Positions 3,674 through 17,470 of a DNA stretch of 64,000 nucleotides are shown in pieces. Both the position numbers and the translations under genes were made by a program. Below the pieces are notes generated by a model. That model did no database searches. It had not been told where the DNA came from and saw only the letters and a program-made list of their open reading frames with translations. The first letter of the stretch is position 1; every line of letters starts with the position of its first letter. Origin of the DNA: Candidatus Poseidoniaceae archaeon (GTDB lineage Archaea > Thermoplasmatota > Poseidoniia > Poseidoniales > Poseidoniaceae); assembly GCA_949373235.1 (NCBI GenBank), contig CASICQ010000003.1, positions 49,136 through 113,135 of the forward strand, written 5' to 3'.

Positions 3674-4165
3674 ATGCACAACGTAGAATGTGATTTGGGT
3701 GTCGCAGCAATCGTGCGTCGCGCCCGCTCCATTTTGCTTGTTCGAGAACTTCACGGTCGCTACCAAGGAAGGTGGGGCCTACCTAAAGGGTATGTCGATG
3801 CTGGAGAATTACCGCGCAACGCAGCGCTCAGAGAACTGAGAGAAGAATGCGGCGTCGAGGGCAACGTCTTGGGCGTTCAATCGGTGCGAGAACGCCTTCT
3901 TGAAGGCACGCCCGCCATATTTATCGCTTACATGGTCGAGATTGCCAAAGATGCTCAGCCAATCCCTAACGAAGAAGTCTCAGAAGCTTTGTTCGTCCCA
4001 GTTGACCAATTTTCTAAGCTGGAGTGGATCAGCGATGCCATGCAAACGATGGCCGTTAACGCAGTCAATTCAAAACACCGCCTTTCCAGTGTGGACTACG
4101 AAGCCGCACGTGGCCATCCATACGTCCTTCACACCTTACCTGAATCACGCGGGGGCATTCTATGA
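3674..4165 (+). CDS. NUDIX hydrolase
   Basis: The Nudix box GLPKGYVDAGELPRNAALRELREECGVEG follows the Gx5Ex7REUxEExGU pattern. The ORF track starts at GTG 3665; ATG 3674 is favoured from the promoter spacing. Confidence 0.75.
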   Translation: MHNVECDLGVAAIVRRARSILLVRELHGRYQGRWGLPKGYVDAGELPRNAALRELREECGVEGNVLGVQSVRERLLEGTPAIFIAYMVEIAKDAQPIPNEEVSEALFVPVDQFSKLEWISDAMQTMAVNAVNSKHRLSSVDYEAARGHPYVLHTLPESRGGIL

Positions 4166-5658
4166 ACACAAAACTAGCAGATCGAGCAAGAGTCCTAAAC
4201 ACCAAACCACTCAACAGTGAAGGGAAATATGTCCTCTACTGGATGATCGCAAATCGAAGGTTCCACTGCAATGCGGCGTTGGAATACGCCGCACATGTAG
4301 CGCACCAGCAAAACGTGCCCTTGATTGTACTCGAAGAGATTTCAACTCGGCACGACTTTGCCAACGACCGAGTCACGGCTTTCGTTGTACAAGGCATGTT
4401 GGACAACATTCGAACCTTCAAAGAGAACAAGATTCGCTACATTCCATGGGTCGAAACACCACTTTCTGGGAAAACAGGGAAATTACACGAACTCGCAAAG
4501 GATGCTGTCATCATCATCAGCGATGAGTTCCCGACTTACTTCCCCCGCAAAGCGGCAGAGAGCGCAGCCAAATCGTTGCCTTACAGGTTCATGATCGTGG
4601 ACTCGAACGGTGTGTTCCCGATGTCTTGGACAGAACGACCATACCCCACGGCACACGGATTCCGCCGATTTGTGCACGAACGATTTGTTGAATGCATCGA
4701 GACCTGGCCATCTCACATGCCAGTTTCCAACGACCACGATCTGTGGATGGAAGATGAAGATTTCATACCGCTCGCTGAGCGCTCAAACCTTGGTGTGACT
4801 CCGTTTGAGTGGTTGTGGCGAGCAGGTGAGCAGGGCTCCGTCGGAAGGGATGCTCTTTCGACCCTCGATATCGATCACAGCGTGGAACCCGTCAAGAACG
4901 TCCGAGGCGGCAGGGACACTGCAGTTCGCATGCTCAGAGAATTCCTGTCCAATCGGCTTGGGCGTTATCATGAAGACAGAAACCAAGTAAAAAATCCGGC
5001 AACCAGTGGCCTTTCGCCTTGGTTCCACTTCGGCCATATTTCCACGGTTGAAGTCGTTCGCCGAATCATAGATTCAAACGGCTGGATGCCCGATTTGATC
5101 AACGCCTCTCGACGAGGGGCTCGAGCAGGTTGGTGGGGTCTACCAGAACCTGTCGAGGCTTTCCTCGACCAAATCATCACATGGCGTGAACTCGGATTCA
5201 ACAACGCATTCCACAACCCCAATCACAATGAATTCGAATCCCTGCCCAACTGGGCAAAAATTACCCTTTCGGAACACGCTGATGATGAACGAACAACATA
5301 CACCCTTGAGCAGATCAGGAACGCTGACACGCATGATGAGATTTGGAACGCTGCCCAGCGGCAACTCGTGAGAAAAGGCATCATCCACAATTATTTGCGC
5401 ATGCTGTGGGGCAAAAGAATCCTCGAATGGGCGGCTTCACCCGAACAAGCCGCAAAGTGGATGATCGAACTCAACGACACCTACGCACTGGATGGACGCG
5501 ACCCGAACTCCTACACAGGGATTTTCTGGGTGCTCGGCCGTCACGACCGCGCATGGGGTCCAGAACGTGCCATCTTCGGTAAAATTCGCTACATGTCATC
5601 TGAGAACACTCGACGCAAGTTTGACCTCAAACCTTACTTGCAAGAGTTTGGCCATTGA
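4162..5658 (+). CDS. phr: Deoxyribodipyrimidine photolyase, class II CPD type
   Basis: The N-terminus KYVLYWMIANRRFHCNAAL and C-terminus GRDPNSYTGIFWVLGRHDRAWGPERAIFGKIRYM match class II photolyases. ATGA overlaps with the Nudix gene and with the downstream gene. Confidence 0.85.
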   Translation: MNTKLADRARVLNTKPLNSEGKYVLYWMIANRRFHCNAALEYAAHVAHQQNVPLIVLEEISTRHDFANDRVTAFVVQGMLDNIRTFKENKIRYIPWVETPLSGKTGKLHELAKDAVIIISDEFPTYFPRKAAESAAKSLPYRFMIVDSNGVFPMSWTERPYPTAHGFRRFVHERFVECIETWPSHMPVSNDHDLWMEDEDFIPLAERSNLGVTPFEWLWRAGEQGSVGRDALSTLDIDHSVEPVKNVRGGRDTAVRMLREFLSNRLGRYHEDRNQVKNPATSGLSPWFHFGHISTVEVVRRIIDSNGWMPDLINASRRGARAGWWGLPEPVEAFLDQIITWRELGFNNAFHNPNHNEFESLPNWAKITLSEHADDERTTYTLEQIRNADTHDEIWNAAQRQLVRKGIIHNYLRMLWGKRILEWAASPEQAAKWMIELNDTYALDGRDPNSYTGIFWVLGRHDRAWGPERAIFGKIRYMSSENTRRKFDLKPYLQEFGH

Positions 5659-7055
5659 AAACAAGGGGCCTTGATATGCGTTACACTCACACCACCCACG
5701 TCGCTGCAGACGTGCAAACCACATTTGATTGGCATGAACGCAAAGGATCCTTCCGTAGGTTGATGCCGCCATGGGAAGAGGTCGAAGAAGTTCGTGCTGA
5801 CCCGACTTTGGAAGATGGTTCTGAACGAATTTTCAGATTCCCAATGGGCCCGATCAAACTTCAATGGATCGCCCGACATAAAGGGTACAATCCACCTCAT
5901 GCGTTTGAGGACGACATGATCAAGGGGCCATTCAAGTCATGGCACCACGTTCACGCGTTCGAAGCAAATGAAGACGGCACGAGCAGAGTCGAAGACACTG
6001 TGAACTTCAGCGTTCCTTTGGGTGGCCTTGGCATGTTGGTTGCAGGACGAAGCATCAACAAACGTATTGACCGTATGTTCACAGCACGGGGCAACAGGCT
6101 TTCCCGAGACATTGCTCGGCACAAGGAATTCGAACACATCGAAAGGAAAAAAATACTGATTGCCGGATCTTCAGGATTGATTGGCAGGCAACTCGTTGCT
6201 TTCCTTGACACTGGCGGCCACGAAGTGTGGCGGCTGGTGCGAAGAACACCGGCTGAAGGAGCACATGAAATTCAATGGGATCCAAAAAACGGAACCCTCG
6301 AGGCTTCGGCCCTCGAAGGTTTTGACGCTGTCATTCATCTCGGTGGTGCTGGCGTTGGTGACAAACGCTGGAGCAAGAAACGCATGGATCTCATCCGTAC
6401 AAGTCGAACCGAAAGCACCACCCTTCTGGCGACCACGCTCGCAGGCTTGGACCAGAAGCCAGAGGTCTTCATGGTGGCAAGCGCTATCGGCTATTACGGC
6501 AACAGAGGCGATGAAGAACTCACTGAAGCCTCCACATCTGGTGACGGTTATCTTCCTGAAACATGCATAGCTTGGGAAGCTTCTGCCCAGCCTGCAAAAG
6601 ATGCTGGCATCCGAACCATTCACGCTCGAACCGGTGGAATTGTGCTCGACGCTACCGGTGGCGGGCTAGGAAAGATGCTGCTGCCTGCAAAACTCGGCGC
6701 TGGCGGTCCAATCGGGCGGGGCAAGCAATGGCTATCATGGATTTCAATGGACGACGAGGTCTATGCAATGCACCACCTGCTCATGACTCAAGCCTGCGAT
6801 GGCGCCTACAACCTCGTGTCGCCTGACACCGTTCAACAGAAAACATTCGCAAAGGTGCTTGGAAAGGTTCTACGTCGCCCTGCTTTCATCCCAACACCGC
6901 CGTTCGGCGTCTGGATTCTATTTGGAAAAATGGGTGTGACATTGACAACCGATAGCGCAAGGGTCGTTCCGACCCGCCTGACTGAACTCGGCTACCGATT
7001 CGAACACACAACCCTCGAACCTGCCTTGCGGGACACGCTTGGTTTGTGGCGCTGA
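5655..7055 (+). CDS. SRPBCC (polyketide-cyclase-like) domain fused to a YfcH/TIGR01777-type NAD-dependent epimerase with a DUF1731-like C-terminal domain
   Basis: The N-terminal 150 aa resemble a START/SRPBCC fold. The Rossmann motif ILIAGSSGLIGRQL is followed by a C-terminal region similar to the YfcH-family DUF1731 tail. Confidence 0.65.
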   Translation: MKTRGLDMRYTHTTHVAADVQTTFDWHERKGSFRRLMPPWEEVEEVRADPTLEDGSERIFRFPMGPIKLQWIARHKGYNPPHAFEDDMIKGPFKSWHHVHAFEANEDGTSRVEDTVNFSVPLGGLGMLVAGRSINKRIDRMFTARGNRLSRDIARHKEFEHIERKKILIAGSSGLIGRQLVAFLDTGGHEVWRLVRRTPAEGAHEIQWDPKNGTLEASALEGFDAVIHLGGAGVGDKRWSKKRMDLIRTSRTESTTLLATTLAGLDQKPEVFMVASAIGYYGNRGDEELTEASTSGDGYLPETCIAWEASAQPAKDAGIRTIHARTGGIVLDATGGGLGKMLLPAKLGAGGPIGRGKQWLSWISMDDEVYAMHHLLMTQACDGAYNLVSPDTVQQKTFAKVLGKVLRRPAFIPTPPFGVWILFGKMGVTLTTDSARVVPTRLTELGYRFEHTTLEPALRDTLGLWR

Positions 7056-7070
7056 TTTGGACCCCGGGAT

Positions 7071-7160
7071 CCCTAAGGGGTAGCGAGTGTACTGGGGGAC
7101 TGAACACCCATTGCACTCTTCCATAATGTCTTGAGGGGTTTGAGAGAACCTTGAGATACG
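7071..7160 (+). repeat. Intergenic repeat element copy A (core ...GTGTACTGGGGGACTGAACACCCATTGCACTCTTCCATAATGTCTTGAGGGGTTTGAGAGAACC...)
   Basis: It is nearly identical to the reverse complement of copy D and similar to copies B and C. It lies immediately 3' of the stop at 7055. Confidence 0.8.
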
Positions 7161-7213
7161 GTGCGATTTGTTGGGACAAAAGAGGGCCCTCTCTTTACGA
7201 TTGAATAACAATA

Positions 7214-10200
7214 ATGTTACCTAATGGTTATATGCGTTCATTCGGACAGTATTACATGCGTATTCCTGTTCTTGTGATCCTTCTCCTTGCCTCAATGCAA
7301 CCAATGCTGGCTCAACCCTCGTTCGATGAGGGGGGAAACCCCCACTTTGCCGATGCCGGAAGCGTTGATGTCATTCAAGAAATTGAACCAAACAACCTCA
7401 ACACCACTGGCCAAGAAGTCTATCCGGGAGACGTGGTTCGAGGAGCAGTCGATATGTGGAGCGATGAATTGGATTACTTTGGTGTTTGGCTGGAGCCTGG
7501 CCAAACCCTCCTGTTGACCCTTTCACACGCCGCAGGCGATGGCGTGTCAATGTCAGTTTGGGACGAAGAAGGAACTCACCTAGGTGCGAGCAACCCTGGA
7601 AAAACCAGGGACACACTGTTCCTTGGGGAAGAGGAAACCGACTACGGTGGGCTCTACATCGTCTCTGTGAACGCAACCATGACCGAAGCTGGTGGTGGCG
7701 CCTATGTTCTTGAGATCGATGCAGGTTACCTCGTCCACTGGTACGCACCAGCTGTTGGCTGGAACGCAGCGACAGAGATGTTCGATGCAAAAGCCAACCT
7801 TTTGTACACTGAATCGCTTTCTTCCTATCAGTTCGCAAACTCAGCATCGTCCACAGCATCTTCTGCACCGGTGTGGACCACCGGTGATTTCTGGAATTTC
7901 ACAGTCACAATGCCAAGCATGATGGGCGCTGAATACAGCGAATATCACCAAATGACGGTAACAGGTACAGAAACAGTTTCTGGAAACGAATGCTACAGAG
8001 TCTCTTTAGAAGGAAAGATGACCTTCTCGATGAGTTTCTTTGGCATGACGACGACCACCACCGATGAAGAAACCGGGGTTGCATGTTATGCTACCTCCGA
8101 TCTTTCACTTGTCCACGAAAACATCACCTTCACCTCCAAAATGGAAACATCTGGCGGCATTGGTGCCATGAGCAGCGATGAAACTTCTGGACGAAGTTGC
8201 ACGACGTCCGATGGCGAACCGGATGAGGATTGTGATGGTGTTGAGGACTTTTTCGACGATTGTTCTGGCACTGCCCCTGGTGCGGAAGTTGACTTCTGGG
8301 GTTGTTCTGAAGCCCAAAACAACGGTGGAGGCAGCGGCGGTAACGACGGCGATAGCGACGGAGTTCCTGACACGGATGATGACTGTCCAAACACTGAGGC
8401 TGGCGCCTCGGTTGATCTGAACGGTTGTTCAGAAGCCCAAAACGGAGGCGGAAACGGCGACGGCGGTGACGGAAACGGTGGTAGCGATGCGACCGATACT
8501 GACGGTGATGGCGTTAACGACAATGACGACATGTGCCCAGATACGATGGCGGGAGCGACCGTCGATGTGATGGGATGTTCTGATGCTCAAAATGGCGGAG
8601 GCAACAACGGCGAAGATGATGGTTCTGGAAACGGAGGCAACGGTGGCTCTGGAAACGGTGGAGACGACGGCTCCGGTGGCAATGACCTTGGATTCGGTTG
8701 TGTTCCTGACATGAGCGACATGAGCACCACTACGGTGTTCCGCTCAGACCTCGTCTACGCTCAGGGCATGGACAACTTCCACTTCCCAATTGAGGAAGGA
8801 ACTGTTTGGAGTGAGGCTGCTGTGGGTGATGGTTCGATTTCGATGTCCTCAGAAATGGGTGGCTGCGAGTTGTTTTCAATCGATGTTCCTGCATCGGATG
8901 CACTGCCTTTGAACTACCGTCATCTTTCAACAAAAGACTTCACCGTAGGTAACGATACGGTAACAGCCAACGGAATCCAAGTCTTTGCCGGACGAGATGG
9001 CAACAATGACTGGGCGACACCTGATTTCACCTTATTACCAAGCGTTCCTGATGATGTAGCCAAGATGGGCCTACCGTTCGCAGCATGGGTGAATGTTGTT
9101 GGGTTTAACGAATTCAACGCACCCGTCAACATGAGTGCGAGCTTGAACGCAGAGAATGCGCCAATTATGTTTGATCAATACCAACTGACCATCGATGATG
9201 CAGGCACCGTGATTGTCGATACAATGAACCTCACCAGTGGAGAGTATCTGCTTACCGTGACAGGTTCTTCAAACGGAGGTGCTGAGCGTTCAATCACGAT
9301 TCCATTTACCGTTGACAACGACCCAGACTTCGAGATTCTCACCTTCGATCCATGGATTGTCTTACCACAAGGTGCAGAGTGGGTTGTACCTACGCCTATT
9401 TTTATCGAACCAGTGAATGGTTTCGGTGCTGATGTCAGCGTCAGTGTGACCGTGCCAGATGGCGTCACGGCTCAACTTGACTTTGCCCGTGGTTCCGCTC
9501 CGTTCATGTCAATCTTGACCCTCACTATCCCTTCTAACCTCACTGCTGGAGATTACACCGTGATCGTAACAGGTGCTGCAGGGAGCAACGTCCATTCTGA
9601 TGAACTCACCTTTACGCTGACGTCATTGCCTGAATTCTCCTTGGAAATTGAAGAGCGCGAACAAATCATCACCAACGGTGCTATGTCCATCAGCGGCGTC
9701 ATCAACGCACACAACGGACTCGACTTGGCGCTAGGTGGGGCTTTGGATATTTTCATTGAACCTTACAACCAGGCGCTGTTGGATTCAGCCGTCATTGAAT
9801 TTGGTGCCATGGATTCAAACGGTGATTTGCCCTTTACAGTGACCTTCACCGTGAGCGACACCACGGACAGAAACGAGTACACCGTGAATCTCAATGTGGT
9901 CGCCCTAGATGGTGGGATCGCTCACATGGCATCCGTTGCCTTTGTCACCGAATCCTCAACACTTGACGGAACAGCAGTTGCAGCAGATGCTTCCGCAGTT
10001 GTATCTGGCAACACCAGTCAGCACGATGGCACAGAAGAAGCAGCCCAAGCGATTGCGAATGGGGAGGAAGTCGAGCAAGAAGATCAGACAAAGGATGAGG
10101 ATGACAAGGGTGATGGCAGCAGCGAGGCTCAATCATCAAACACAGGTCTGATTGTAGGATCGACCATTGGAATTCTTGGCGTCGTTGTTGGCGTTGCAGT

Positions 10201-10630
10201 GGTTCTCATGCGCCGTCGTGACGATGGCGCAGGTAAGGATTTCAATCAACAACAATGGAATCAGGCACCTGCACAACCAATGCCCGCTCAAGCAGGTATG
10301 GCGCCCATGCCAGACTATGCAACAGTGCAACAACCTGTTCAGCCAGCACAACCTGTTCAACACGTGCAACCGGTTCAACCAGCGCAAGTTGCCGCACCAG
10401 TTGCTCCAGTACAGCCTGCAGCAGTTCCTGCACCAGCGCCTGTTGCTACCGCACCTCCACCGCCTGTTGCCACCGCACCTCCTCCACCAGCTCAACCAAC
10501 AACCGTGGCTGATTACACTGGTTTGCCACCTGGTGGCTCCTATGATCAGTCAACCGGACAAACGGTCTACATTCAAGCAGATGGTGTACGATGGCAAATG
10601 ATGGGCGATGGAAGTTTCAATCGACTGTGA
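7214..10630 (+). CDS. Large secreted surface protein (signal peptide, four thrombospondin-type-3-like Ca-binding repeats, C-terminal TM anchor and Pro-rich cytoplasmic tail)
   Basis: There is an N-terminal hydrophobic signal (MRIPVLVILLLASMQPMLAQP). The motif DxDxDGVxDxxDxCPxTxAGAxVDxxGCSEAQNGGG is repeated four times. A TM helix GLIVGSTIGILGVVVGVAVVLM is followed by RRRDD and a PAQPVQ-rich tail. Confidence 0.8.
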   Translation: MLPNGYMRSFGQYYMRIPVLVILLLASMQPMLAQPSFDEGGNPHFADAGSVDVIQEIEPNNLNTTGQEVYPGDVVRGAVDMWSDELDYFGVWLEPGQTLLLTLSHAAGDGVSMSVWDEEGTHLGASNPGKTRDTLFLGEEETDYGGLYIVSVNATMTEAGGGAYVLEIDAGYLVHWYAPAVGWNAATEMFDAKANLLYTESLSSYQFANSASSTASSAPVWTTGDFWNFTVTMPSMMGAEYSEYHQMTVTGTETVSGNECYRVSLEGKMTFSMSFFGMTTTTTDEETGVACYATSDLSLVHENITFTSKMETSGGIGAMSSDETSGRSCTTSDGEPDEDCDGVEDFFDDCSGTAPGAEVDFWGCSEAQNNGGGSGGNDGDSDGVPDTDDDCPNTEAGASVDLNGCSEAQNGGGNGDGGDGNGGSDATDTDGDGVNDNDDMCPDTMAGATVDVMGCSDAQNGGGNNGEDDGSGNGGNGGSGNGGDDGSGGNDLGFGCVPDMSDMSTTTVFRSDLVYAQGMDNFHFPIEEGTVWSEAAVGDGSISMSSEMGGCELFSIDVPASDALPLNYRHLSTKDFTVGNDTVTANGIQVFAGRDGNNDWATPDFTLLPSVPDDVAKMGLPFAAWVNVVGFNEFNAPVNMSASLNAENAPIMFDQYQLTIDDAGTVIVDTMNLTSGEYLLTVTGSSNGGAERSITIPFTVDNDPDFEILTFDPWIVLPQGAEWVVPTPIFIEPVNGFGADVSVSVTVPDGVTAQLDFARGSAPFMSILTLTIPSNLTAGDYTVIVTGAAGSNVHSDELTFTLTSLPEFSLEIEEREQIITNGAMSISGVINAHNGLDLALGGALDIFIEPYNQALLDSAVIEFGAMDSNGDLPFTVTFTVSDTTDRNEYTVNLNVVALDGGIAHMASVAFVTESSTLDGTAVAADASAVVSGNTSQHDGTEEAAQAIANGEEVEQEDQTKDEDDKGDGSSEAQSSNTGLIVGSTIGILGVVVGVAVVLMRRRDDGAGKDFNQQQWNQAPAQPMPAQAGMAPMPDYATVQQPVQPAQPVQHVQPVQPAQVAAPVAPVQPAAVPAPAPVATAPPPPVATAPPPPAQPTTVADYTGLPPGGSYDQSTGQTVYIQADGVRWQMMGDGSFNRL
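8190..8700 (+). repeat. Coding tandem repeats (TSP3-like calcium-binding motifs separated by Gly/Asp/Asn linkers) within the surface protein gene
   Basis: The amino-acid repeat occurs four times: EDCDGVEDFFDDCSGTAPGAEVDFWGCSEAQN, then DSDGVPDTDDDCPNTEAGASVDLNGCSEAQN, then DTDGDGVNDNDDMCPDTMAGATVDVMGCSDAQN, plus a partial fourth copy. Confidence 0.8.
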
Positions 10631-10699
10631 TTGTTTCCTCGACATTGAATATCTTCAACGTCAAGGCTGACGTCAATGAGTCGGGATTCAGCACATTCT

Positions 10700-10830
10700 C
10701 CCACTGTACACCCATTCATGAAATGCATGTTGAGGGTAGCGATCCGACAGACCCACTGAACACCCATTGTACTCCTCCATAATGTCTTGAGGGGTTTGAA
10801 AGAACCCTTGCGATTTCATGGGAATGATAT
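10700..10830 (+). repeat. Intergenic repeat element copy B (with a partial degenerate half-copy immediately upstream)
   Basis: ACTGAACACCCATTGTACTCCTCCATAATGTCTTGAGGGGTTTGAAAGAACCCTTGCGATTTCATGGGAATGAT lies directly 3' of the stop at 10630. CCACTGTACACCCATTCATGAAATGCATGTTGAGGG at 10701..10737 is a degenerate partial copy. Confidence 0.8.
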
Positions 10831-10855
10831 GTCGCTCACTGTATCCTGTTAAGAT

Positions 10856-11227
10856 TCAAAGTGATTTGTCTGCTCGATTTAGCACCCATTCAAACATCGA
10901 TTTAAGACTGGGGTGAAGTGATATTGCATCCTTGGTAAGCGTATATTCGACTGTAGCCGGAACGGTTGCATAAGCAGTACGAGTGACCAACCCATTGGCT
11001 TCAAGTTCGCCCAATCGTCTTGCAACAGTTGTTGAGGAAGAGTCAACCCTCTTTTTTATTTCAGAAAAACGCATTGGCGTAGGATCACAATTCATTATGT
11101 AGAGAATACTGAGCATCTTAGATTTTGAGAGTAAAACCAGTAAATCATCAACATGGCTTCGGGCCGATTCGCACATTGATTCAATGCGCAGTGATTGTAC
11201 TTGAGACATGGAGATCCTAAGTAACAT
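10856..11227 (-). CDS. HxlR-family winged-helix transcriptional regulator
   Basis: CDPTPMRFSEIKKRVDSSSTTVARRLGELEANGLVTRTAYATVPATVEYTLTKDAISL matches the HxlR signature (RFxEL ... LEANGLV ... VEYxLT). The true start may be the internal Met at about 11209. The gene is divergent from an MDR oxidoreductase gene, a common pairing. Confidence 0.75.
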   Translation of the reverse strand: MLLRISMSQVQSLRIESMCESARSHVDDLLVLLSKSKMLSILYIMNCDPTPMRFSEIKKRVDSSSTTVARRLGELEANGLVTRTAYATVPATVEYTLTKDAISLHPSLKSMFEWVLNRADKSL

Positions 11228-11316
11228 TTTGGTATTAAGGCACAGGTTACAACATTGTTACAAAAGAACACTTCTGCCACTTTTTGGTTTATGTACGGAA
11301 GTACTTAGCCGGGGTC

Positions 11317-12420
11317 ATGATGGCACATCCAAACGGCAAAACAATGAACAGCATCGGTTTCTCGAAATACGGCAAACCCGCCCAATTGAAGAAAACGGAG
11401 GTGCCTTATCCACATGGATTTGATGCATCTAAAAATGTAGTCATCAAGGTTCACGCATCTTCGGTTAATCCAGTGGACAAAATACTGCTGTCTGGAGATT
11501 TGAAACTTGTTTTCCCTGTTGCTGAATTCCCTCATGTCATCTCTTATGATGTCGCAGGAGTTGTGGAAAAAGCCGATAGCAAAGGAGTATTTTCGGTAGG
11601 ACAGCCTGTATTTGCTCGCGTATGGGGAGATGTAGATGATGACAAGAAGACACCGTGGTTCAGAGGTGCAATGGCCGAATTTTGTGTTGCACGTACATCT
11701 GATGTTGTCACTAAGCCAGACAGCATCAGTTTCGAGGAAGCCGCATCTATTCCACTCGCTGGAATGACTGCATTCCAGGTACTGAAAGAATCTGGGCTGA
11801 AAGAAGGTGACTCTGTCTTCATCTCCGGAGGGGCTGGTGGAGTTGGCACAATGGCCATTCAATTGGCAAAGCATGTATTCAAAGCAGGACTTGTAGTTAC
11901 CACAGCATCAAAAGGCGAAAAGATGGATTTGTGTAAGAGCCTTGGTGCAGATGAAGTCCTCGATTACAGATCAGAGAACTTTGTCACAGTATATGGAAAC
12001 GATGACAGTACGAAATTCGATGTTTGTTTTGATACAACTGCAGAAGGTCTTGAGATGGTCAAAGTCATCAAAGAAGGGGGACGAATTGTATCTATTGCAG
12101 GAACGCCTACTTTAGATGAAATTAGGAGAATCGGAGGAACTGCTTGGATTCTCAAGTTGTTTTTGAAGAGGAGAGAGAAGCGCAAGGAGTACAAAGCTGC
12201 TCAATCTAAGAACGCTAACTGGACCTACCTCTTCCTTTCACCAAGTCATGAAGATCTCTCAACGCTTGCAAATCATCTCGAAAGCGGTGCGATTAAGCCT
12301 GTGCTTGACGGTGTTTGGGACTTCCATTCAGAAGATCTCGAAGATGGTTGGCAGGGGGCGTTCAATCGCTCTTTTTCAGGTCGAGCAAAGGGGAAATGCG
12401 TTGTGAAAATTTCATCCTAA
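11317..12420 (+). CDS. Medium-chain dehydrogenase/reductase (zeta-crystallin/quinone-oxidoreductase-like)
   Basis: MNSIGFSKYGKPAQL is an MDR-type N-terminus and GGAGGVGTMAIQLAKH is a Rossmann motif. The ORF track starts at TTG 11284. ATG candidates are 11317 and 11344. Confidence 0.65.
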   Translation: MMAHPNGKTMNSIGFSKYGKPAQLKKTEVPYPHGFDASKNVVIKVHASSVNPVDKILLSGDLKLVFPVAEFPHVISYDVAGVVEKADSKGVFSVGQPVFARVWGDVDDDKKTPWFRGAMAEFCVARTSDVVTKPDSISFEEAASIPLAGMTAFQVLKESGLKEGDSVFISGGAGGVGTMAIQLAKHVFKAGLVVTTASKGEKMDLCKSLGADEVLDYRSENFVTVYGNDDSTKFDVCFDTTAEGLEMVKVIKEGGRIVSIAGTPTLDEIRRIGGTAWILKLFLKRREKRKEYKAAQSKNANWTYLFLSPSHEDLSTLANHLESGAIKPVLDGVWDFHSEDLEDGWQGAFNRSFSGRAKGKCVVKISS

Positions 12421-12485
12421 GCATGGTCTGAACGAATTGCGATACCCCTCTGTATACCCTTGCGACAAGCGTCTCACGCGTCGGT

Positions 12486-12562
12486 ACCTAAGGGTTCTTC
12501 CAAACTCCTCAAGACATTATGGAGAAGGACGCTGGGGTTTAATTTCCGAGTACACTGAAGGT
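12486..12562 (-). repeat. Intergenic repeat element copy C (diverged, reverse orientation)
   Basis: CCTCAAGACATTATGGAGAAGGACGCTGGGGTTTAATTTCCGAGTACACTG. The reverse complement shares the conserved CAGTGTACT ... CTCCATAATGTCTTGAGG(A/G)GTTTG(G/T)AAGAACCCT blocks. It lies between two plus-strand genes. Confidence 0.7.
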
Positions 12563-12620
12563 GAAGAACTTACAGAAGTGTTAGCGAGGTAAAATATACT
12601 TCATCGCATTGTTAAATTAC

Positions 12621-14624
12621 ATGGCGAAGAAAACTATACCTGTTGTGCTAATTGTATTACTGCTTGTTGGAGCGTCGGTTCTTGCCCTTCAACGCCACGG
12701 GGAGGCAGGAATCACTCAAGATGGGGAGAACTCTGACGGGTTGCCTCTCGTACCTCTCGTTGAGCGTACCACACAGGGCATTCAAGCCTCAGACGACCTT
12801 CGTATTGCTCTTCAAAATGAGGCATACATGAATCTTGAATTCTACCAAAACAATGCGTATGAATGCGGATTAAGCGGTGTGTACTCATTTATGGTGATGA
12901 ATCCAATCAACAGTGAAGCTGGAGATGAGGCGCCGCTTTGGGTTTACTTACATGGCGGGGGCTCAGGCTATTGGGCTGAAGATGGGACCTATTACGCCGT
13001 AGGTGCACAGACTCAGGACACATGGAACCATGAGGAAACATCCGAAGATCTTCTCGAAACGATTACACTTCGAATTGATTTCATCGGTGGGCAAGTGGAA
13101 GACAACACGTTGTCTCGACGCATCATGGAGGGGTATCGGCTGCTTGTGGTCTCTATGTGCGACCATGACCAATACCTCGGAATGGGGACCGCCATCCCAA
13201 ATCATCCATCAAATCCGAATGCTGAAGTGAACGGTTTACAAGCAACTATGGCGGCCATTGATTACACTGTAGCGAGTTATCCAACGACCAATGTGTTCGT
13301 GCACGGAACAAGTGCGGGTTCCGTTGGCGCCTATGCTGTTGGGTTGAGTTACGCTGCCGAAGGAACAGGTTTGACCGGTGTTGTATCCGATTCGATTCTC
13401 ACCTCACGCAACATCGTGATTCAAGATCTATTTGCTGGAACACCGGGTTTTCCTCAACAGGAAGGGTTTGAGACTTCAGGTGTTGATGCAAAGGTGGGCG
13501 TATGGAGAGACAGTGATAACCTGCTTTCACCGGAGGAAAGAATTGCTGCTGGTTTTGAGATGACGCCCATTCTCCAAATTGGCGGCACAATTGATTCTCA
13601 ATGTGCAGGTGATCGGGCTGCAATCCCCGAAGCCGTTGCGGAAGGATTCGACAACAATTGTAGGTGGCTGGCTCAGCCAATGAAAGACATCCTTAATCTA
13701 CAACCCAACAACCCACACGGGCTGGCATTAATCGAAGGCGAAAAACATGTTCCAACCATTAATGTCGGAGCTTCACATGACATCGTCGATTCATTCATTT
13801 CAGCATCCATTCAACGCTCAATTGCTTACCCGTTTGAAGAAGGAATAACCCTCGATAACGACTGGATGGCTGACCAATTGAGTCCTGACAATCATAACGT
13901 CCTCTACATTGGCCACAGTTTTGGAAATATTTTCGCAAAAACGCTTAGTAATCATGCAGAATTAGCAGGCATTACCAATCATTCACAATACAATGAGGTA
14001 AGTGGAGGGGCATCCGGAGCGCCTGATGCGCTGTGGGCTGATGAAGGGCACCGCGAGACCATCAAGGCTTACTTGGATACTGGTGAAGTCGATGTATTGA
14101 TCATGATTTGTTGCAGCATTGAGTTTATTGAAACCGGTCTCCAATCTGATGCGGCAATTTGGAATTTCACCTCCTATGCCATAGAAAAGAATCCTGATAC
14201 ACACATTGGTTTGGCCATGCCATGGAAAGATTTCCCAGCGGAATATGAGAACGGAACGGAGTACAGAAATCAATCAGATATTGCCTATGATGCCTGGGTG
14301 AATCTCTCCACAAACTTGAGTACTGATTTCCCATCTACTGATGTATTTACATTCAATCATGGGGCAGTCTTGTATGAACTCCGAGATATGTTTGAAGCAG
14401 GTGAACTGGATGGAGACGTTGACCAACTTACAGGACCGAAAGAAACCTCCATTTTCACCGATGCAAAAGGCCACGCAGGGCAAATCGCAATTGATACTGG
14501 TACGCTGGTATGGCTTCATGCCGTGTATGGTATTGAACCCACCAGTGTTCCAGAATTTGATCAATATGAAGTTGATATTCGACAGATTGCTCAGACTGTT
14601 ATTGATGAGCAAAATCAACAGTAG
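12621..14624 (+). CDS. Secreted alpha/beta-hydrolase-fold protein (esterase/lipase-like) with a large C-terminal extension
   Basis: A signal peptide KKTIPVVLIVLLLVGASVLAL is present. PLWVYLHGGGSG is an HGGG oxyanion-hole-like motif. VFVHGTSAGSVGAY is a GxSxG nucleophile elbow. The ORF track starts at TTG 12609; the first ATG is 12621. Confidence 0.5.
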   Translation: MAKKTIPVVLIVLLLVGASVLALQRHGEAGITQDGENSDGLPLVPLVERTTQGIQASDDLRIALQNEAYMNLEFYQNNAYECGLSGVYSFMVMNPINSEAGDEAPLWVYLHGGGSGYWAEDGTYYAVGAQTQDTWNHEETSEDLLETITLRIDFIGGQVEDNTLSRRIMEGYRLLVVSMCDHDQYLGMGTAIPNHPSNPNAEVNGLQATMAAIDYTVASYPTTNVFVHGTSAGSVGAYAVGLSYAAEGTGLTGVVSDSILTSRNIVIQDLFAGTPGFPQQEGFETSGVDAKVGVWRDSDNLLSPEERIAAGFEMTPILQIGGTIDSQCAGDRAAIPEAVAEGFDNNCRWLAQPMKDILNLQPNNPHGLALIEGEKHVPTINVGASHDIVDSFISASIQRSIAYPFEEGITLDNDWMADQLSPDNHNVLYIGHSFGNIFAKTLSNHAELAGITNHSQYNEVSGGASGAPDALWADEGHRETIKAYLDTGEVDVLIMICCSIEFIETGLQSDAAIWNFTSYAIEKNPDTHIGLAMPWKDFPAEYENGTEYRNQSDIAYDAWVNLSTNLSTDFPSTDVFTFNHGAVLYELRDMFEAGELDGDVDQLTGPKETSIFTDAKGHAGQIAIDTGTLVWLHAVYGIEPTSVPEFDQYEVDIRQIAQTVIDEQNQQ

Positions 14625-14629
14625 CGACA

Positions 14630-14725
14630 TATCATTTCCATGAAATCGCGAGGGTTCTTACAAACCCCTCAAGACATTATGGAGGAGTACAATGGGTGTT
14701 CAGTCCCCCAGTACACTGCCTAGCG
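14630..14725 (-). repeat. Intergenic repeat element copy D (reverse orientation; best match to copy A)
   Basis: The reverse complement is CGCTAGGCAGTGTACTGGGGGACTGAACACCCATTGTACTCCTCCATAATGTCTTGAGGGGTTTGTAAGAACCCTCGCGATTTCATGGAAATGAT. It sits between convergent genes ending at 14624 and 14745. Confidence 0.8.
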
Positions 14726-14744
14726 TCTGTATCGGCCCACTGAG

Positions 14745-15779
14745 TTAGTCGAGGCTCGGGGAAAAAAGCGTTGAAAGAGCAATTTGCATCTTTCTGTAAA
14801 AGTTTAGGGTAAGCCTTCGACTCAAAACATCCCCGTTCCGGCGTATCGCTTCTTTCAGAATGGCGTTGTAAGCCATGCACATCAAGCGAGGCGATCTGCG
14901 AGCGTCCTTGTCCAGCAGAGGCAGAAGCCCCAGAGCATTGTTTCGATTCGCAACGACATGGTCGATGTAGTGGCGCATGAAGTTTTGCCATGCTGGGCGT
15001 GTAGCGAGGGTAGGGTCGGTTAGATCATCGTGTGTAAGTCCGAACTTTGCAAGCTCTTCTGTTGGCAAGTATATGCGATTGCGCTCGAGGTCTTCCTGGA
15101 TATCTCTGAGCACGTTCACGAGTTGCAAAAACAATCCCATTTCGACGGCATGGCGCCGAGCGTTTGGGTCGGTGTAACCATAAATTTCGATTAAGCACAG
15201 GCCGACGGTGGATGCCACGCGGTAACAATAACGTCGTAGGTCTTCAAAACGAGCGTAATTTGTTTCAAACAAATCATCTTCCATGCCGTTGATGAGTTCT
15301 CGCAGGTGTTCCAAATCAATCGGATAGCGCTGAGCGGTATCTGCGAGTGCGATGAACATCGGTTCGTTCATTGATTCCCCACGTTCGATGCTGTCAAGTC
15401 GAGCCCTGAACATCATCAAGCCACGCAATCGCAATCGATGCTGTTCCGTTTCATAAATTGGATTTGCTTCTCGTTGATCAAGCAGCGTTGAGCGGCGTTC
15501 TTCTGTCGCCCCGTCAAAGCTGGATAGATCTCCTTCGGGGAGCCAGTCACCGTCGACGATGTCGTCAACCCGCCGGCAGAAGGCATACAACGCATTGACG
15601 GCTTTTCTCTTTGGTTCCGGCAAATGCCTGAACGAGCGGAAGAAGGAACTTGAAGCACCACGGGCAATGGATTCACAATCAATGTATGCCTGTTCAAGAC
15701 GTTCACTGGAAGTTGAACTTCCATCTTCAACCAACAAGAAACTCGATGTCATCTGTTCTTCACCTCCGGTAACAATCAA
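14745..15779 (-). CDS. crtB: Phytoene synthase (squalene/phytoene synthase family)
   Basis: YCYRVASTVGLCLIEIYG and VNVLRDIQEDLERNRIYLP correspond to the two Asp-rich/substrate motifs YCYxVAGTVG and NILRDVxEDxxRGRxYLP of CrtB. Confidence 0.8.
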   Translation of the reverse strand: MIVTGGEEQMTSSFLLVEDGSSTSSERLEQAYIDCESIARGASSSFFRSFRHLPEPKRKAVNALYAFCRRVDDIVDGDWLPEGDLSSFDGATEERRSTLLDQREANPIYETEQHRLRLRGLMMFRARLDSIERGESMNEPMFIALADTAQRYPIDLEHLRELINGMEDDLFETNYARFEDLRRYCYRVASTVGLCLIEIYGYTDPNARRHAVEMGLFLQLVNVLRDIQEDLERNRIYLPTEELAKFGLTHDDLTDPTLATRPAWQNFMRHYIDHVVANRNNALGLLPLLDKDARRSPRLMCMAYNAILKEAIRRNGDVLSRRLTLNFYRKMQIALSTLFSPSLD

Positions 15780-15841
15780 GATTCAACTATGTTCATATTT
15801 GAAGTGTGGTTTTTTTTCCGTCAAAGAAACAGAAAAAAACC
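15780..15841 (-). terminator. Putative intrinsic terminator/intergenic hairpin between the ALDH gene and crtB (minus-strand transcript GGTTTTTTT...AAAAAAAACC, inverted repeat plus U-tract)
   Basis: T8 and A7 runs form an inverted repeat directly after the ALDH stop codon. Archaeal termination commonly uses oligo-T tracts. Confidence 0.35.
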
Positions 15842-17470
15842 TCAAGCGAGTTGAGTCCAGTCAACGTCAGCTTCAGCCATCTCAACTTCCTCAACATCCA
15901 TTTGAGCCAGTTGCAATTTGCCTGAGAGTTCGTCGTTCACTGCATGCCAGTAAGAGTAGGCTTCAATGACCCAAATCCCAGATTCACGGGTTCCGTTGCC
16001 ACTGCCTTTTACACCACCAAACGGTAGGTGAGCTTCTGCACCAGTGGTTGAATTGTTGATGCCGGTCATACCAGCCTTAATCCCGGTCTTGTAGCGGTAG
16101 GCCTCAAGGCGGTCGTTGGTGTAGATCGCAGACGAGAGACCGTATGGGCTAGCGTTGGCCAAGTGAAGAGCGTGATCGAAATCCCGTGCCTTGCAAATGG
16201 TGATTGCAGGTCCAAACACTTCTTCGTGGAAGCATTCCATGTCTTCGGTGACATCGGTGAAAACGTGTGGCCACATGTAGACGCCATCTTCAGCAGTGCT
16301 GAGGAAGTTTGTTGGCTTGTTGTCGCTGGAGATGCGGCCTTTGCCGTGAATGAGGTTTGCACCAGATGCCTTGCACATTTCGACAGCGACTAAGAAGTCC
16401 TTGGCGTATTTCTCAGAAAGCATTGGACCGTAAAGCACGCCATCATGGACCAACGAATCGCCGATTCTTGTGGCTTCAACTTTCGCCATGAGTTTTGTCA
16501 TAAACTCGTCGTAAATATCTTCGTGAAGAATGAGGTTTCCAAGGGAAGTGCAGCGTTGTCCAGCCGTTCCAAAGCCGCCCCAATAAGCACCCTCAACAGC
16601 GTTGTCAAGGTTCGCCGATGGCATGACGACAAGGGGGTTCTTTCCGCCCAATTCAAGCGAACATGAAACCAAGTTGCGCCCACAGACTTCGCCGATCATC
16701 TTGCCGACTTCGGTTGAACCGGTAAAGGAGATTTTGTTGACTCGACCTTCATCGACTGCGTCGACCAAGTGCTGGCCAGCGCCGCTGCCTTTCCCGTGGA
16801 CGAGGTTAATCACACCGTTGGGCAGGCCTGCCTCGTGCATAATACGGGCAAGGGCAAACGAAAGCAAAGGTGCGTCTTGTGGACTCTTCCAAACGCAAGT
16901 GTTTCCGCACATGATGGCTGGAATCATCTTCCAGAAAGGTACGGCTGCAGGGAAGTTGCAGGCGTTGATGATGCCACAAACGCCAAGCGGGCGGCGGTAG
17001 GTGAACAGTTCCTTGTCAGGAAGTTCGGAATTGACGGTCTGACCGTACAAACGGCGGCCTTCAGACTGGAAGAACAAGCACGTGTCAATGGCTTCTTGAA
17101 CTGAACCTGCGGCTTCTTTCAGCGTCTTTCCAATTTCACGGGTTTCCAAAGCGACGATGGCATCTTTGTGATCCATGAGCAATCGACCCATGTTGCCAAT
17201 GATTTGGCCACGGGTTGGAGCGGGCGTTGCGGCCCATCCGGGGAAGGCTTCGTGTGCTGCATCCAATGCTGCGTTCACATCTGCTTTGGTCGACAATGGG
17301 AATTCTCCGAGGTGATCCTTGAGCAGAGCGGGATTCATCGAGGAAAAGGTTGCACCGTCACTGGCCAAGGTGAGTTGACCATTGATGATGTTGTAGCCAC
17401 GAACAGCCGGTTTTCCATTTGGATTTTCGTTGGCGAGGAACTCAAGACCAGTTTCTAAAACATGAACCAT
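15842..17470 (-). CDS. NAD(P)-dependent aldehyde dehydrogenase (possibly 1-pyrroline-5-carboxylate/glutamate-semialdehyde dehydrogenase subtype)
   Basis: FTGSTEVGKMI, LELGGKNP and catalytic-Cys context GQRCTS are ALDH superfamily motifs. The 542-aa length fits P5C dehydrogenases. The subtype assignment is inference. Confidence 0.75.
   Translation of the reverse strand: MVHVLETGLEFLANENPNGKPAVRGYNIINGQLTLASDGATFSSMNPALLKDHLGEFPLSTKADVNAALDAAHEAFPGWAATPAPTRGQIIGNMGRLLMDHKDAIVALETREIGKTLKEAAGSVQEAIDTCLFFQSEGRRLYGQTVNSELPDKELFTYRRPLGVCGIINACNFPAAVPFWKMIPAIMCGNTCVWKSPQDAPLLSFALARIMHEAGLPNGVINLVHGKGSGAGQHLVDAVDEGRVNKISFTGSTEVGKMIGEVCGRNLVSCSLELGGKNPLVVMPSANLDNAVEGAYWGGFGTAGQRCTSLGNLILHEDIYDEFMTKLMAKVEATRIGDSLVHDGVLYGPMLSEKYAKDFLVAVEMCKASGANLIHGKGRISSDNKPTNFLSTAEDGVYMWPHVFTDVTEDMECFHEEVFGPAITICKARDFDHALHLANASPYGLSSAIYTNDRLEAYRYKTGIKAGMTGINNSTTGAEAHLPFGGVKGSGNGTRESGIWVIEAYSYWHAVNDELSGKLQLAQMDVEEVEMAEADVDWTQLA

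Follow-up and report, generated by a model that had tools for sequence, protein, structure and literature searches.

Four repeated intergenic elements in a hypervariable island of a Marine Group II archaeon as putative sites of a serine-recombinase gene-cassette system

What are the four copies of a conserved intergenic element that lie close together in a genome fragment of a Candidatus Poseidoniaceae archaeon, and how do they relate to the genes between them? The stretch of DNA under study (64,000 nt of contig CASICQ010000003.1, hereafter the window) carries these copies, designated A and B on the plus strand and C and D on the minus strand, at the places given in an initial annotation, which had proposed either a mobile repeat akin to MITEs (miniature inverted-repeat transposable elements) or a structured DNA/RNA element. 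Based on comparative sequence analysis, we consider it likely that the four elements are att/res-like recombination sites of a serine-recombinase gene-cassette system in Marine Group II (MGII) archaea. Of the earlier proposal, a DNA-level element tied to mobility was retained, whereas neither the MITE nor the structured RNA was. A search for inverted and direct repeats recovered the near-identity of copy A and the reverse complement of copy D that had been pointed out (91% over 70 nt), and also paired B with D (96% over 82 nt) and A with B (84% over 73 nt). The invariant 22-mer CCATAATGTCTTGAGGNGTTTG matched four times in the window versus not once in 100 shuffles. By profile search, no further copy of this family (F1) was found in the 64 kb; the sole extra piece, at 14721-14744, comprised 24 nt from the 5' part of a sister-family unit.

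The distribution of the family was determined by a scan of species-representative genomes in which 21 of the 22 core bases were specified. The F1 core was present in 74 stretches, nearly all of them contigs of metagenome-assembled genomes (MAGs) of Candidatus Poseidoniales/Poseidoniaceae, that is, of MGII archaea, and exact-core copies per MAG were few (1-7 in the examples tallied). Two contigs with the archaeal F1 element are filed under bacteria, L022 (CAJXLR010000360.1) as a Bacteroidetes MAG and L070 (JAOMAZ010000003.1) as a Deltaproteobacteria single-cell genome, which probably reflects mis-binning or contamination. Viral contigs gave no match to the element. The unit was defined from an alignment of 72 non-identical F1 copies from public genomes. 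Its ends are sharp, with a conserved (G/C)TAG at the 5' end and ...GGAAATGATATGTCG at the 3' end; the ∼90 bp described at first thus cover a conserved element, but the full unit measures ∼105 nt, from (G/C)TAG to ...ATGATATGTCG. Two subfamilies, F2 and F3, have the layout of F1 with a different sequence and occur in the same MAG loci. A profile of 170 distinct sites read W-S-G-S-TA-G-S-S-W, followed by TGTAC/TGTAT at +7 to +11. Around the TA the composition is symmetric (WSGS-TA-GSSW), yet the conserved motif is present on the inner arm alone, and good site symmetry was limited to head-to-head joins of two inner arms. A second copy of the TA-adjacent motif lies 24 nt downstream and varies in concert with the first (4.8/9, compared with 3.6 under permutation; 2 of 5000 permutations reached the observed value). 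Inverted repeats within F1 were barely above shuffled controls. The hairpin GGGTT/AACCC noticed before is real, but comprises just five Watson-Crick pairs and has two hypervariable loop bases.

With respect to neighbouring genes, the four copies had been described as all abutting gene 3' ends. This does not hold for copy A, the 3' end of which faces the start of a gene for a 1138-aa protein, but family-wide the elements were commoner in convergent than in divergent intergenic regions (35:9 after orthologous sites had been collapsed). In co-directional (tandem) contexts, orientation to the neighbouring genes was 28:14, likewise after collapsing, a weak preference that leaves orientation largely independent of transcription. 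A transcription terminator, already thought unlikely, was rejected: the longest T-run in the unit is 3 nt and the orientation to flanking genes is mixed. Open reading frames (ORFs) across the elements are spurious, as had been supposed. Indels of ±1 nt, which shift the frame, occur in 5 of the 72 copies and the ATG start codon is not conserved, and a small-peptide reading was therefore rejected. The copies are neither coding C-termini nor the product of a local duplication confined to the contig, the two other origins that the initial annotation had named. At one orthologous site compared between species, the element was 91% identical, the adjacent gene 73%, and the outer flank could not be aligned; the value for the element drops to ∼88% once the 22 nt fixed by the search pattern are discounted, and it carries an ascertainment bias because only copies that had kept the core were sampled.

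Near-isogenic strains were identified by exact-protein look-ups with the HxlR-type regulator, the phytoene synthase and the epimerase encoded in the window. Judged from these strains, a hypervariable island occupies 7.08-14.72 kb, flanked by two core genes, those of the epimerase and the phytoene synthase. Strains in which both proteins are identical and the flanks are 99-100% identical differ in the gene content between them. The contents observed were a 1124-1144-aa protein, HxlR with a Zn alcohol dehydrogenase (ADH), a 667-aa protein, HxlR with an aldo/keto reductase (AKR) in either orientation, a 575-aa TSP3-repeat protein, small unknown ORFs and, in some strains, a serine recombinase of 257-259 aa. 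In the strain maps, most cassette boundaries had an F element at or near them. The HxlR-ADH module (window 10755-12486/12488) was 99.2-99.4% identical in at least four different contexts, and the HxlR/AKR cassette was inverted between the near-identical strains L088 and L089. Contigs from two other species representatives, L052 and L033/L071, carry the 2.2-kb segment 12489-14722 at 99.3-99.8% identity between unrelated outer flanks. Downstream of the TA at 12485-12486, six different continuations were found (window, L003, L013/L077, L075, L078, L087). The HxlR regulator pairs with either Zn-ADH (window 10856-12420) or AKR (L088:6791-8309, L089:9247-10765) in alternative cassettes.

Every junction examined at sequence level fell exactly at the TA of (G/C)TAG at the element 5' end. 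In L087 the empty site reads ...CACGCGTCGG-TA-GCGTCTGTATCGG (CGTCGG-TA-GCGTCTG). In the window the same site is filled and reads ...CACGCGTCGG-TA-CCTAAGGG, continues through 2232 nt containing copy C, the 667-aa gene and copy D, and returns with CACTGCC-TA-GCGTCTGTATCGG. At copy A the window reads ...CCCTAAGGGG-TA-GCGAGTGTACTGG (AAGGGG-TA-GCGAGTG) and is without the insert of L096, where a 4035-nt cassette is located exactly at the copy-A TA: AAGGGG-TA-GCCATCAATACGGCCCACTG...GTTGCCATGGG-TA-GCGAGTGTACTGG (...CCATGGG-TA-GCGAGTG). The outer flank left of copy B is joined through its TA to three different partners, one in the window and two others in L088 and L090. Junction partners have in common just the TA and 1-3 neighbouring bases, and partners that differ on both sides at once share the TA alone, which on this comparative evidence is the pattern of an exchange at a 2-bp central dinucleotide. 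Joins of all three types were seen: outer-TA-inner, outer-TA-outer (as in GGTACC) and inner-TA-inner (CCTAGG/CCTAGC), the last being the head-to-head pairs. These clean filled/empty pairs came from the near-isogenic strains; among the first 74 loci, unit-sized filled/empty indels between related loci were not found. Internal homology breakpoints were also counted between segments at least 97% identical over 1.11 Mb (n = 161). Of these, 22 coincided exactly with a site TA, and the number rose to 34 for a distance of up to 2 nt and to 55 for up to 6 nt, compared with a chance value of 0.09% for a position within ±2 nt of a site TA. In total, 102 of the 161 breakpoints were in or at elements, a count to be read with the fact that intergenic regions are the usual places of synteny breaks and are here largely filled by elements.

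The recombinases of three islands are homologous (42-82% identity). The 257-aa protein matched PF00239 (Resolvase catalytic domain, E = 3e-32) and, weakly, PF07508 ('Recombinase'). A predicted structural model (pLDDT, the predicted local distance difference test, of 77) was compared by Foldseek, and the best matches were serine integrases, among them Bxb1 and phiC31, with alignments of ∼250 columns that span the catalytic and the recombinase domains. The protein ends at 257 aa and is without the zinc-ribbon/coiled-coil domain of large serine integrases, so that two of the three domains of the large serine recombinase set are present. Curated NCBI models matched weakly, with CcrB, XisF and CcrC best; the NCBIfam CcrB model was the best curated match (E = 1e-19 to 7e-23), far below its cut-off. 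The family comprised 789 protein clusters with generic names only, mostly on 1-2-kb contigs.

A metagenome scan for the recombinase yielded 80 loci. Where the recombinase was at least 63% identical to the query and 300 nt or more of sequence preceded its gene, an F unit in the same orientation was located upstream in essentially all loci. F1 was found at -154 to -159 (-183 in one locus) for recombinases 77-100% identical to the query, and F2-type units at -162 to -188 for those 62-76% identical. Hence, the fixed-distance linkage of unit and recombinase (-154 to -188 nt) was present in ∼40 metagenome loci, and recombinase clades pair with element subfamilies. Upstream of the recombinase-linked units, S-G-S-TA (mostly SGG-TA) was conserved, and beyond it ∼20 unrelated flanks followed. 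The stretch between unit and recombinase gene consists of modules M and H', which explains the mosaic fragments found by other copies, including a remnant fused to copy A. On a 2.04-Mb contig, island L181 shows the order core genes, TA-F1, recombinase, 7.4 kb of small ORFs and inverted F1-TA. In both L181 and L182, inverted F1 units whose tips point outward form the island ends, like A and D in the window. The L181 stretch after the recombinase (L181:10782-17059) holds about a dozen small ORFs of 38-157 aa without Pfam match and resembles an integron-style array; F1 and F2 profiles detected no internal sites in it. Wadjet-like genes (MksE, MksF, JetD-C) and a PIN7-domain gene were observed as cargo at L182:1113-7395 and L077:1-3226. 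This cargo is enclosed by an F1 unit linked to a recombinase and an F1 unit in inverted orientation, and defence systems therefore ride in the islands. Most contigs with the recombinase gene and 8 of the 13 contigs carrying the HxlR regulator of the window were shorter than 2 kb. Short-read assemblies break systematically at cassette islands, and MAGs therefore probably under-represent them.

These findings are consistent with the following mechanism. A site would consist of a crossover TA within W-S-G-S-TA-G-S-S-W, a scarcely conserved outer side and a conserved inner arm of ∼100 nt, the 'element'. The autonomous form carries the gene for the 257-aa recombinase ∼155-190 nt downstream of the unit. 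We infer that this recombinase is the catalyst and that the crossover at the TA follows 2-bp chemistry: staggered 2-bp cuts would be made at the TA and partners exchanged between any two sites. Serine integrases exchange strands at a 2-bp central dinucleotide, which alone sets the polarity of the sites, and their directionality depends on the coiled-coil domain. A palindromic central dinucleotide is said to have been found by Ghosh and co-workers in 2003 to abolish polarity in Bxb1. Because the TA is palindromic and the directionality-imposing domain is absent, MGII sites would pair in either alignment, resulting in integration, excision and inversion. The combination of a palindromic TA and a truncated enzyme indeed predicts the integrations, excisions and inversions observed, as well as the left-left and right-right joins. 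The long conserved arm possibly provides accessory sites, by analogy to those of Tn3 res. Read in this way, window 7081-14722 would be an array of three cassettes, one with the 1138-aa gene, one with HxlR and ADH, and an inverted one with the 667-aa gene.

The left boundary of the island is copy A (7081-7150, plus strand, F1 model positions 5-94), with its crossover TA at 7081-7082. This copy is internally deleted after GAACC (7150) and through the deletion is joined to TTGAGATACGGTG (7151-7163, plus), a remnant of the end of module M that was recognized by comparison with the downstream modules of L001/L013 and with the leader between unit and recombinase gene, of which module M is a part in autonomous copies. 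Copy A has the same form across all strains L093-L100. The cargo of cassette 1 is the 1138-aa protein (7214-10630, plus), which has no Pfam match and contains Gly/Asn/Asp-rich repeats; homologues of 1124-1144 aa occupy the same place in sister strains. Short tandem repeats with a period of ∼24 nt (8300-8680) encode Gly/Asn/Asp-rich stretches inside this ORF. The outer flank of site B (...CCCACTGTACACCCATTCATGAAATGCATGTTGAGGG; 10690-10736, plus) includes a decayed half-copy of the unit, and the 'degenerate half-copy' noted left of B is accordingly real (10690-10733). Copy B (10737-10834, plus, crossover TA 10737-10738) is a complete F1 unit with a variant 5' box (TAGCGATCCGACAGACCC) formed by its first 18 nt. 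Homology to L075/L077 begins at 10755 and homology to L093 ends at 10834. The 3' end of copy B is 21 nt from the HxlR stop codon. Cassette 2 (cargo 10856-12420) encodes the HxlR-type regulator (10856-11227, minus) and the Zn-dependent ADH (11284-12420, plus). It is followed by a 'Type-1' outer module, TACCCCTCTGTATACCCTTGCGACAAGCGTCTCACGCGTCGG (12443-12486, plus), which leads into the TA at 12485-12486, a junction point.

Copy C (12489-12557, minus, model positions 13-82) is a diverged F1 unit, truncated at both ends and without a TA tip. It is a fossil site inside the inverted cassette 3, and complete orthologues of it are present in L071, L052 and L086. The cargo of cassette 3 is the 667-aa protein (12621-14624, plus), also without Pfam match, the stop codon of which abuts the 3' end of copy D. 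Copy D (14625-14722, minus, crossover TA 14721-14722) is a complete F1 unit at which the island ends on the right; L087 and L090 are again homologous to the window from 14720/14721 on. Head-to-head with copy D, and sharing its TA, is the 5' fragment of an F2-type unit (TAGCGTCTGTATCGGCCCACTGAG; 14721-14744, plus), a resident half-site beside the phytoene synthase stop codon that was found next to crtB in all strains L085-L092. The core genes on the left (4162-7055) encode a photolyase-like protein and the epimerase/DUF1731 protein, and those on the right (14745-17470) the phytoene synthase and an aldehyde dehydrogenase; the flanks are thus light- and redox-related. The G+C content is lower at 10-16 kb of the window (0.47 versus 0.52). 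The largest ORF of the window, with 2364 aa, is located at 54657-61751 on the minus strand.

Several observations weigh against recombination sites of this kind. No recombinase gene was found in the 64-kb window, and no F1/F2 unit was detectable upstream of recombinases 42-62% identical to the query. The latter may use further site families; some of them (L142-L156, L166-L178) share a weak partial F2 match 1681 nt upstream. The site is strongly asymmetric and F1 has little dyad symmetry. Known serine-integrase att sites are ∼40-50 bp long and roughly symmetric, and a one-sided conservation over 100 nt is therefore not explained. Where copy C is truncated (CCCTTA|GG-TA), the TA rule is not cleanly followed. 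Breakpoints, like copies, do not represent independent observations, all sequences are metagenome assemblies, and the argument is a comparative one. Furthermore, 12 of the 161 breakpoints map 18 nt into the unit, where the variable 5' box borders the conserved core, and copy D arose by recombination between two F1 copies that L086 retains in tandem; units therefore also undergo plain homologous recombination with each other. The same two facts would be expected of passive dispersed repeats in the manner of repetitive extragenic palindromic (REP) sequences and bacterial interspersed mosaic elements (BIMEs), either selfish or conserved for another reason, turned over by homologous recombination between ∼100-nt repeats alone and with the recombinase as mere cargo that chances to adjoin a repeat. 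The mosaic modules, the head-to-head pairs and the preference for convergent intergenic regions resemble BIMEs as well, and the conserved (G/C)TAG recalls the GTAG of REP sequences, but no REP-type GC-rich hairpin follows it. We consider this explanation unlikely, given that homologous recombination needs shared sequence on both sides, whereas L087, L088 and L090 share with the window just the TA and 1-3 bases, and outer-TA-outer joins (L075, L088) contain no repeat at all. Nor would random cargo be expected to keep a fixed distance to the unit in ∼40 loci, with a site subfamily that changes with the recombinase clade, and no RAYT/Y1 transposase was found among the neighbours sampled. That the apparent cassette shuffling stems from metagenome assemblers joining sequences chimerically across a 100-nt repeat appears hardly credible. 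All data are indeed assemblies, and contigs with these genes are often 1-2 kb long and end near elements. Each junction sequence must nevertheless exist in reads, the 105-nt unit is shorter than typical reads, and the arrangements were seen repeatedly, in independent samples and projects and also on contigs of 290-580 kb and the polished 2.04-Mb contig. Several joins have no repeat longer than the TA and a few bases, so that an assembler has nothing to mis-join on.

The TA itself suggests another origin, namely the ends of a TA-targeting cut-and-paste transposon (IS630/Tc1-mariner style), or of a MITE derived from it, with the transposase encoded elsewhere. The islands L181 and L182 and the interval from A to D are bounded by inverted F1 units with the TA at their outer tips, and TA flanks inserts on both sides. 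Even so, we regard such a transposon as quite improbable. Single units are without terminal inverted repeats (TIRs), as the 5' end (TAGGCAGTGTAC...) and the sharp 3' end are unrelated across the 72 aligned copies, and apparent TIRs turned out to be a neighbouring inverted partial unit or leader module. The inserts of the L087 pair and of L096 have a unit at one end only, or unlike ends, and land in the TA of existing sites, not at random TAs; the TA was therefore rejected as a target-site duplication (TSD). The unit is also without a TSD of its own and without a linked transposase, the linked gene being that of a serine recombinase, and kb-sized cassettes move instead of the unit. Neither DDE nor RAYT/Y1 (HUH) transposases were found among the commonest neighbour families scanned against Pfam (490 ORFs clustered; whole genomes were not searched). 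A structured non-coding RNA or 3'-untranslated-region (3'-UTR) element, co-transcribed and affecting mRNA stability, processing or regulation, was considered as well. Sequence conservation is very high, above that of the adjacent gene, the unit 3' end faces a gene 3' end in 54 of 72 F1 copies before de-duplication, F2/F3 variants change sequence but keep complementary segments, and several substitutions on the forward strand are G-U-compatible. Yet Rfam 15 gave no match in the window at gathering thresholds and chance-level hits alone (E ≥ 2) in a permissive search of 6500-15500. RNAalifold predicted 13 pairs for the 72 F1 copies with essentially no covariation. Single-sequence folds and RNAalifold on sequence-based alignments of 24 F2/F3 copies indicated little structure and almost no covariation. 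For 117 copies, fold z-scores were weak and alike on the two strands (F1 -0.7/-0.9, F2 -1.7/-1.6). A candidate H-type pseudoknot in F2/F3 (loop UCGGAU with AUCCGA) showed too little variation among copies. The initial orientation bias (51/65) that had suggested a 3'-UTR element faded to 23:15 without orthologous sites, and a consistent promoter or T-run is missing. The complementary segments are equally readable as inverted protein-binding half-sites in duplex DNA, and a direct-repeat motif covaries too. An RNA element would leave the TA-exact junctions and the recombinase linkage unexplained, and we give it very little credence. Judged by eye, the defining motifs of C/D-box and H/ACA RNAs, ribozymes, promoters (TATA box, B recognition element), origins (origin recognition box) and terminators were also lacking.

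Beyond sites of a serine-recombinase cassette system, a wider proposal can be made, for which we see the arguments as about evenly balanced. MGII archaea may possess a self-contained 'serine integron', in which a minimal 257-aa recombinase without directionality domain acts on any two one-armed sites of ∼105 nt with a palindromic TA, and cassettes are excised, inserted, flipped and passed between species. Transfer between species is suggested by the 2.2-kb cassette, which was met at 99.3-99.8% identity in three genomic contexts, including two from genomes representing different species. The cargo seen comprises defence systems, redox-sensor/oxidoreductase pairs and surface proteins. MGII archaea are among the most abundant archaea of the surface ocean and are uncultured, and we know of no gene-exchange mechanism described for them. 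In the literature searched, the core sequence was not found in any paper, nor was an MGII repeat or recombinase system found described. If the proposal is true, neither domain has a described cassette system of this kind, and the system would be what chiefly drives the flexible genome of an uncultured archaeal group that ranks among the most abundant in the ocean. It would identify the mechanism behind MGII hypervariable islands, explain the assembly breaks at island loci and provide a site-plus-recombinase signature for finding flexible genes and horizontal transfer in MAGs. It would also mean that integron-like cassette economies can exist in archaea and rest on serine recombinases. For the development of genome-engineering tools, an enzyme of 257 aa that has a defined site but lacks a directionality module would be of interest.

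Among known serine recombinase systems, Tn4451/Tn4453 (TnpX) and Tn5397 (TndX) are flanked on both sides by the crossover dinucleotide GA, the equivalent of the MGII TA. In these elements, as in integrase systems, excision yields a circle and an empty site that keeps one copy of the dinucleotide, and the dinucleotide alone sets polarity. In contrast to the MGII protein, the enzymes of Tn4451, Tn5397, Bxb1 and phiC31 are full-length with directionality control. Their dinucleotides are non-palindromic, their sites are ∼40-50 bp long and roughly symmetric, and one defined element is moved without multi-cassette arrays. The layout of the autonomous MGII copies resembles Tn3 res, a site of ∼105-120 bp directly upstream of a serine recombinase gene with a palindromic AT/TA crossover dinucleotide. 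The crossover is at the gene-distal end and the rest of the site, in res the accessory subsites II and III, extends toward the gene. However, res occurs once per replicon, acts on direct repeats in cis only and resolves cointegrates, whereas MGII sites are found at scattered cassette joints and recombine in all configurations; the inversions and intermolecular products speak against strict resolution selectivity. In addition, the MGII C-terminal domain is like the integrase 'recombinase domain' and not like the small helix-turn-helix of Tn3 resolvase. SCCmec (staphylococcal cassette chromosome mec) with its Ccr enzymes is likewise driven by serine recombinases, with cassettes at the 3' end of a conserved chromosomal gene, composite arrays with repeated site sequences between cassettes and many cassettes without a recombinase of their own. 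Ccr proteins have 440-560 aa with zinc-ribbon/coiled-coil, compared to 257 aa in MGII; the sites of SCC elements are short direct repeats in one orientation, whereas MGII sites have a one-sided arm of ∼100 nt and occur in both orientations, and the host here is an archaeon.

The cassettes themselves are reminiscent of integrons, where small promoter-poor cassettes consist of one or more genes and a 60-140-nt site at the gene 3' end, stacked in strain-variable arrays, and where chromosomal arrays have sequence-conserved sites, such as the VCRs (Vibrio cholerae repeats) of Vibrio. The integron IntI is a tyrosine recombinase, unlike the MGII serine recombinase, and no tyrosine recombinase was found among the neighbours sampled. 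An attC site was rejected for the MGII element, as its ends are not complementary and GTTRRRY is missing at the 3' end; no R''/R' inverted-repeat hairpin spans the site. The MGII crossover is at a 2-bp TA and not at G|TT of a folded bottom strand, the cassettes are in both orientations, and no attI/Pc platform was seen. With REP/BIME elements the MGII units have in common that they are short conserved intergenic repeats forming mosaics and head-to-head pairs, enriched between convergent genes. They differ from these and from MITEs by the absence of a GC-rich hairpin after TAG and of TIR/TSD, by a low copy number (1-7, as tallied above), and by a linked serine recombinase gene where no Y1/HUH gene was seen. 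In Prochlorococcus, tycheposons are cargo-carrying integrative elements that remodel genomic islands; some are cargo-only, most use tyrosine recombinases and integrate at tRNA genes, and replication modules are often carried (10.1101/2020.12.28.424599). No tRNA gene was found in the MGII window, a difference from the tycheposons, which as elements of a streamlined and abundant marine microbe are nonetheless the nearest ecological analogue of the MGII cassettes.

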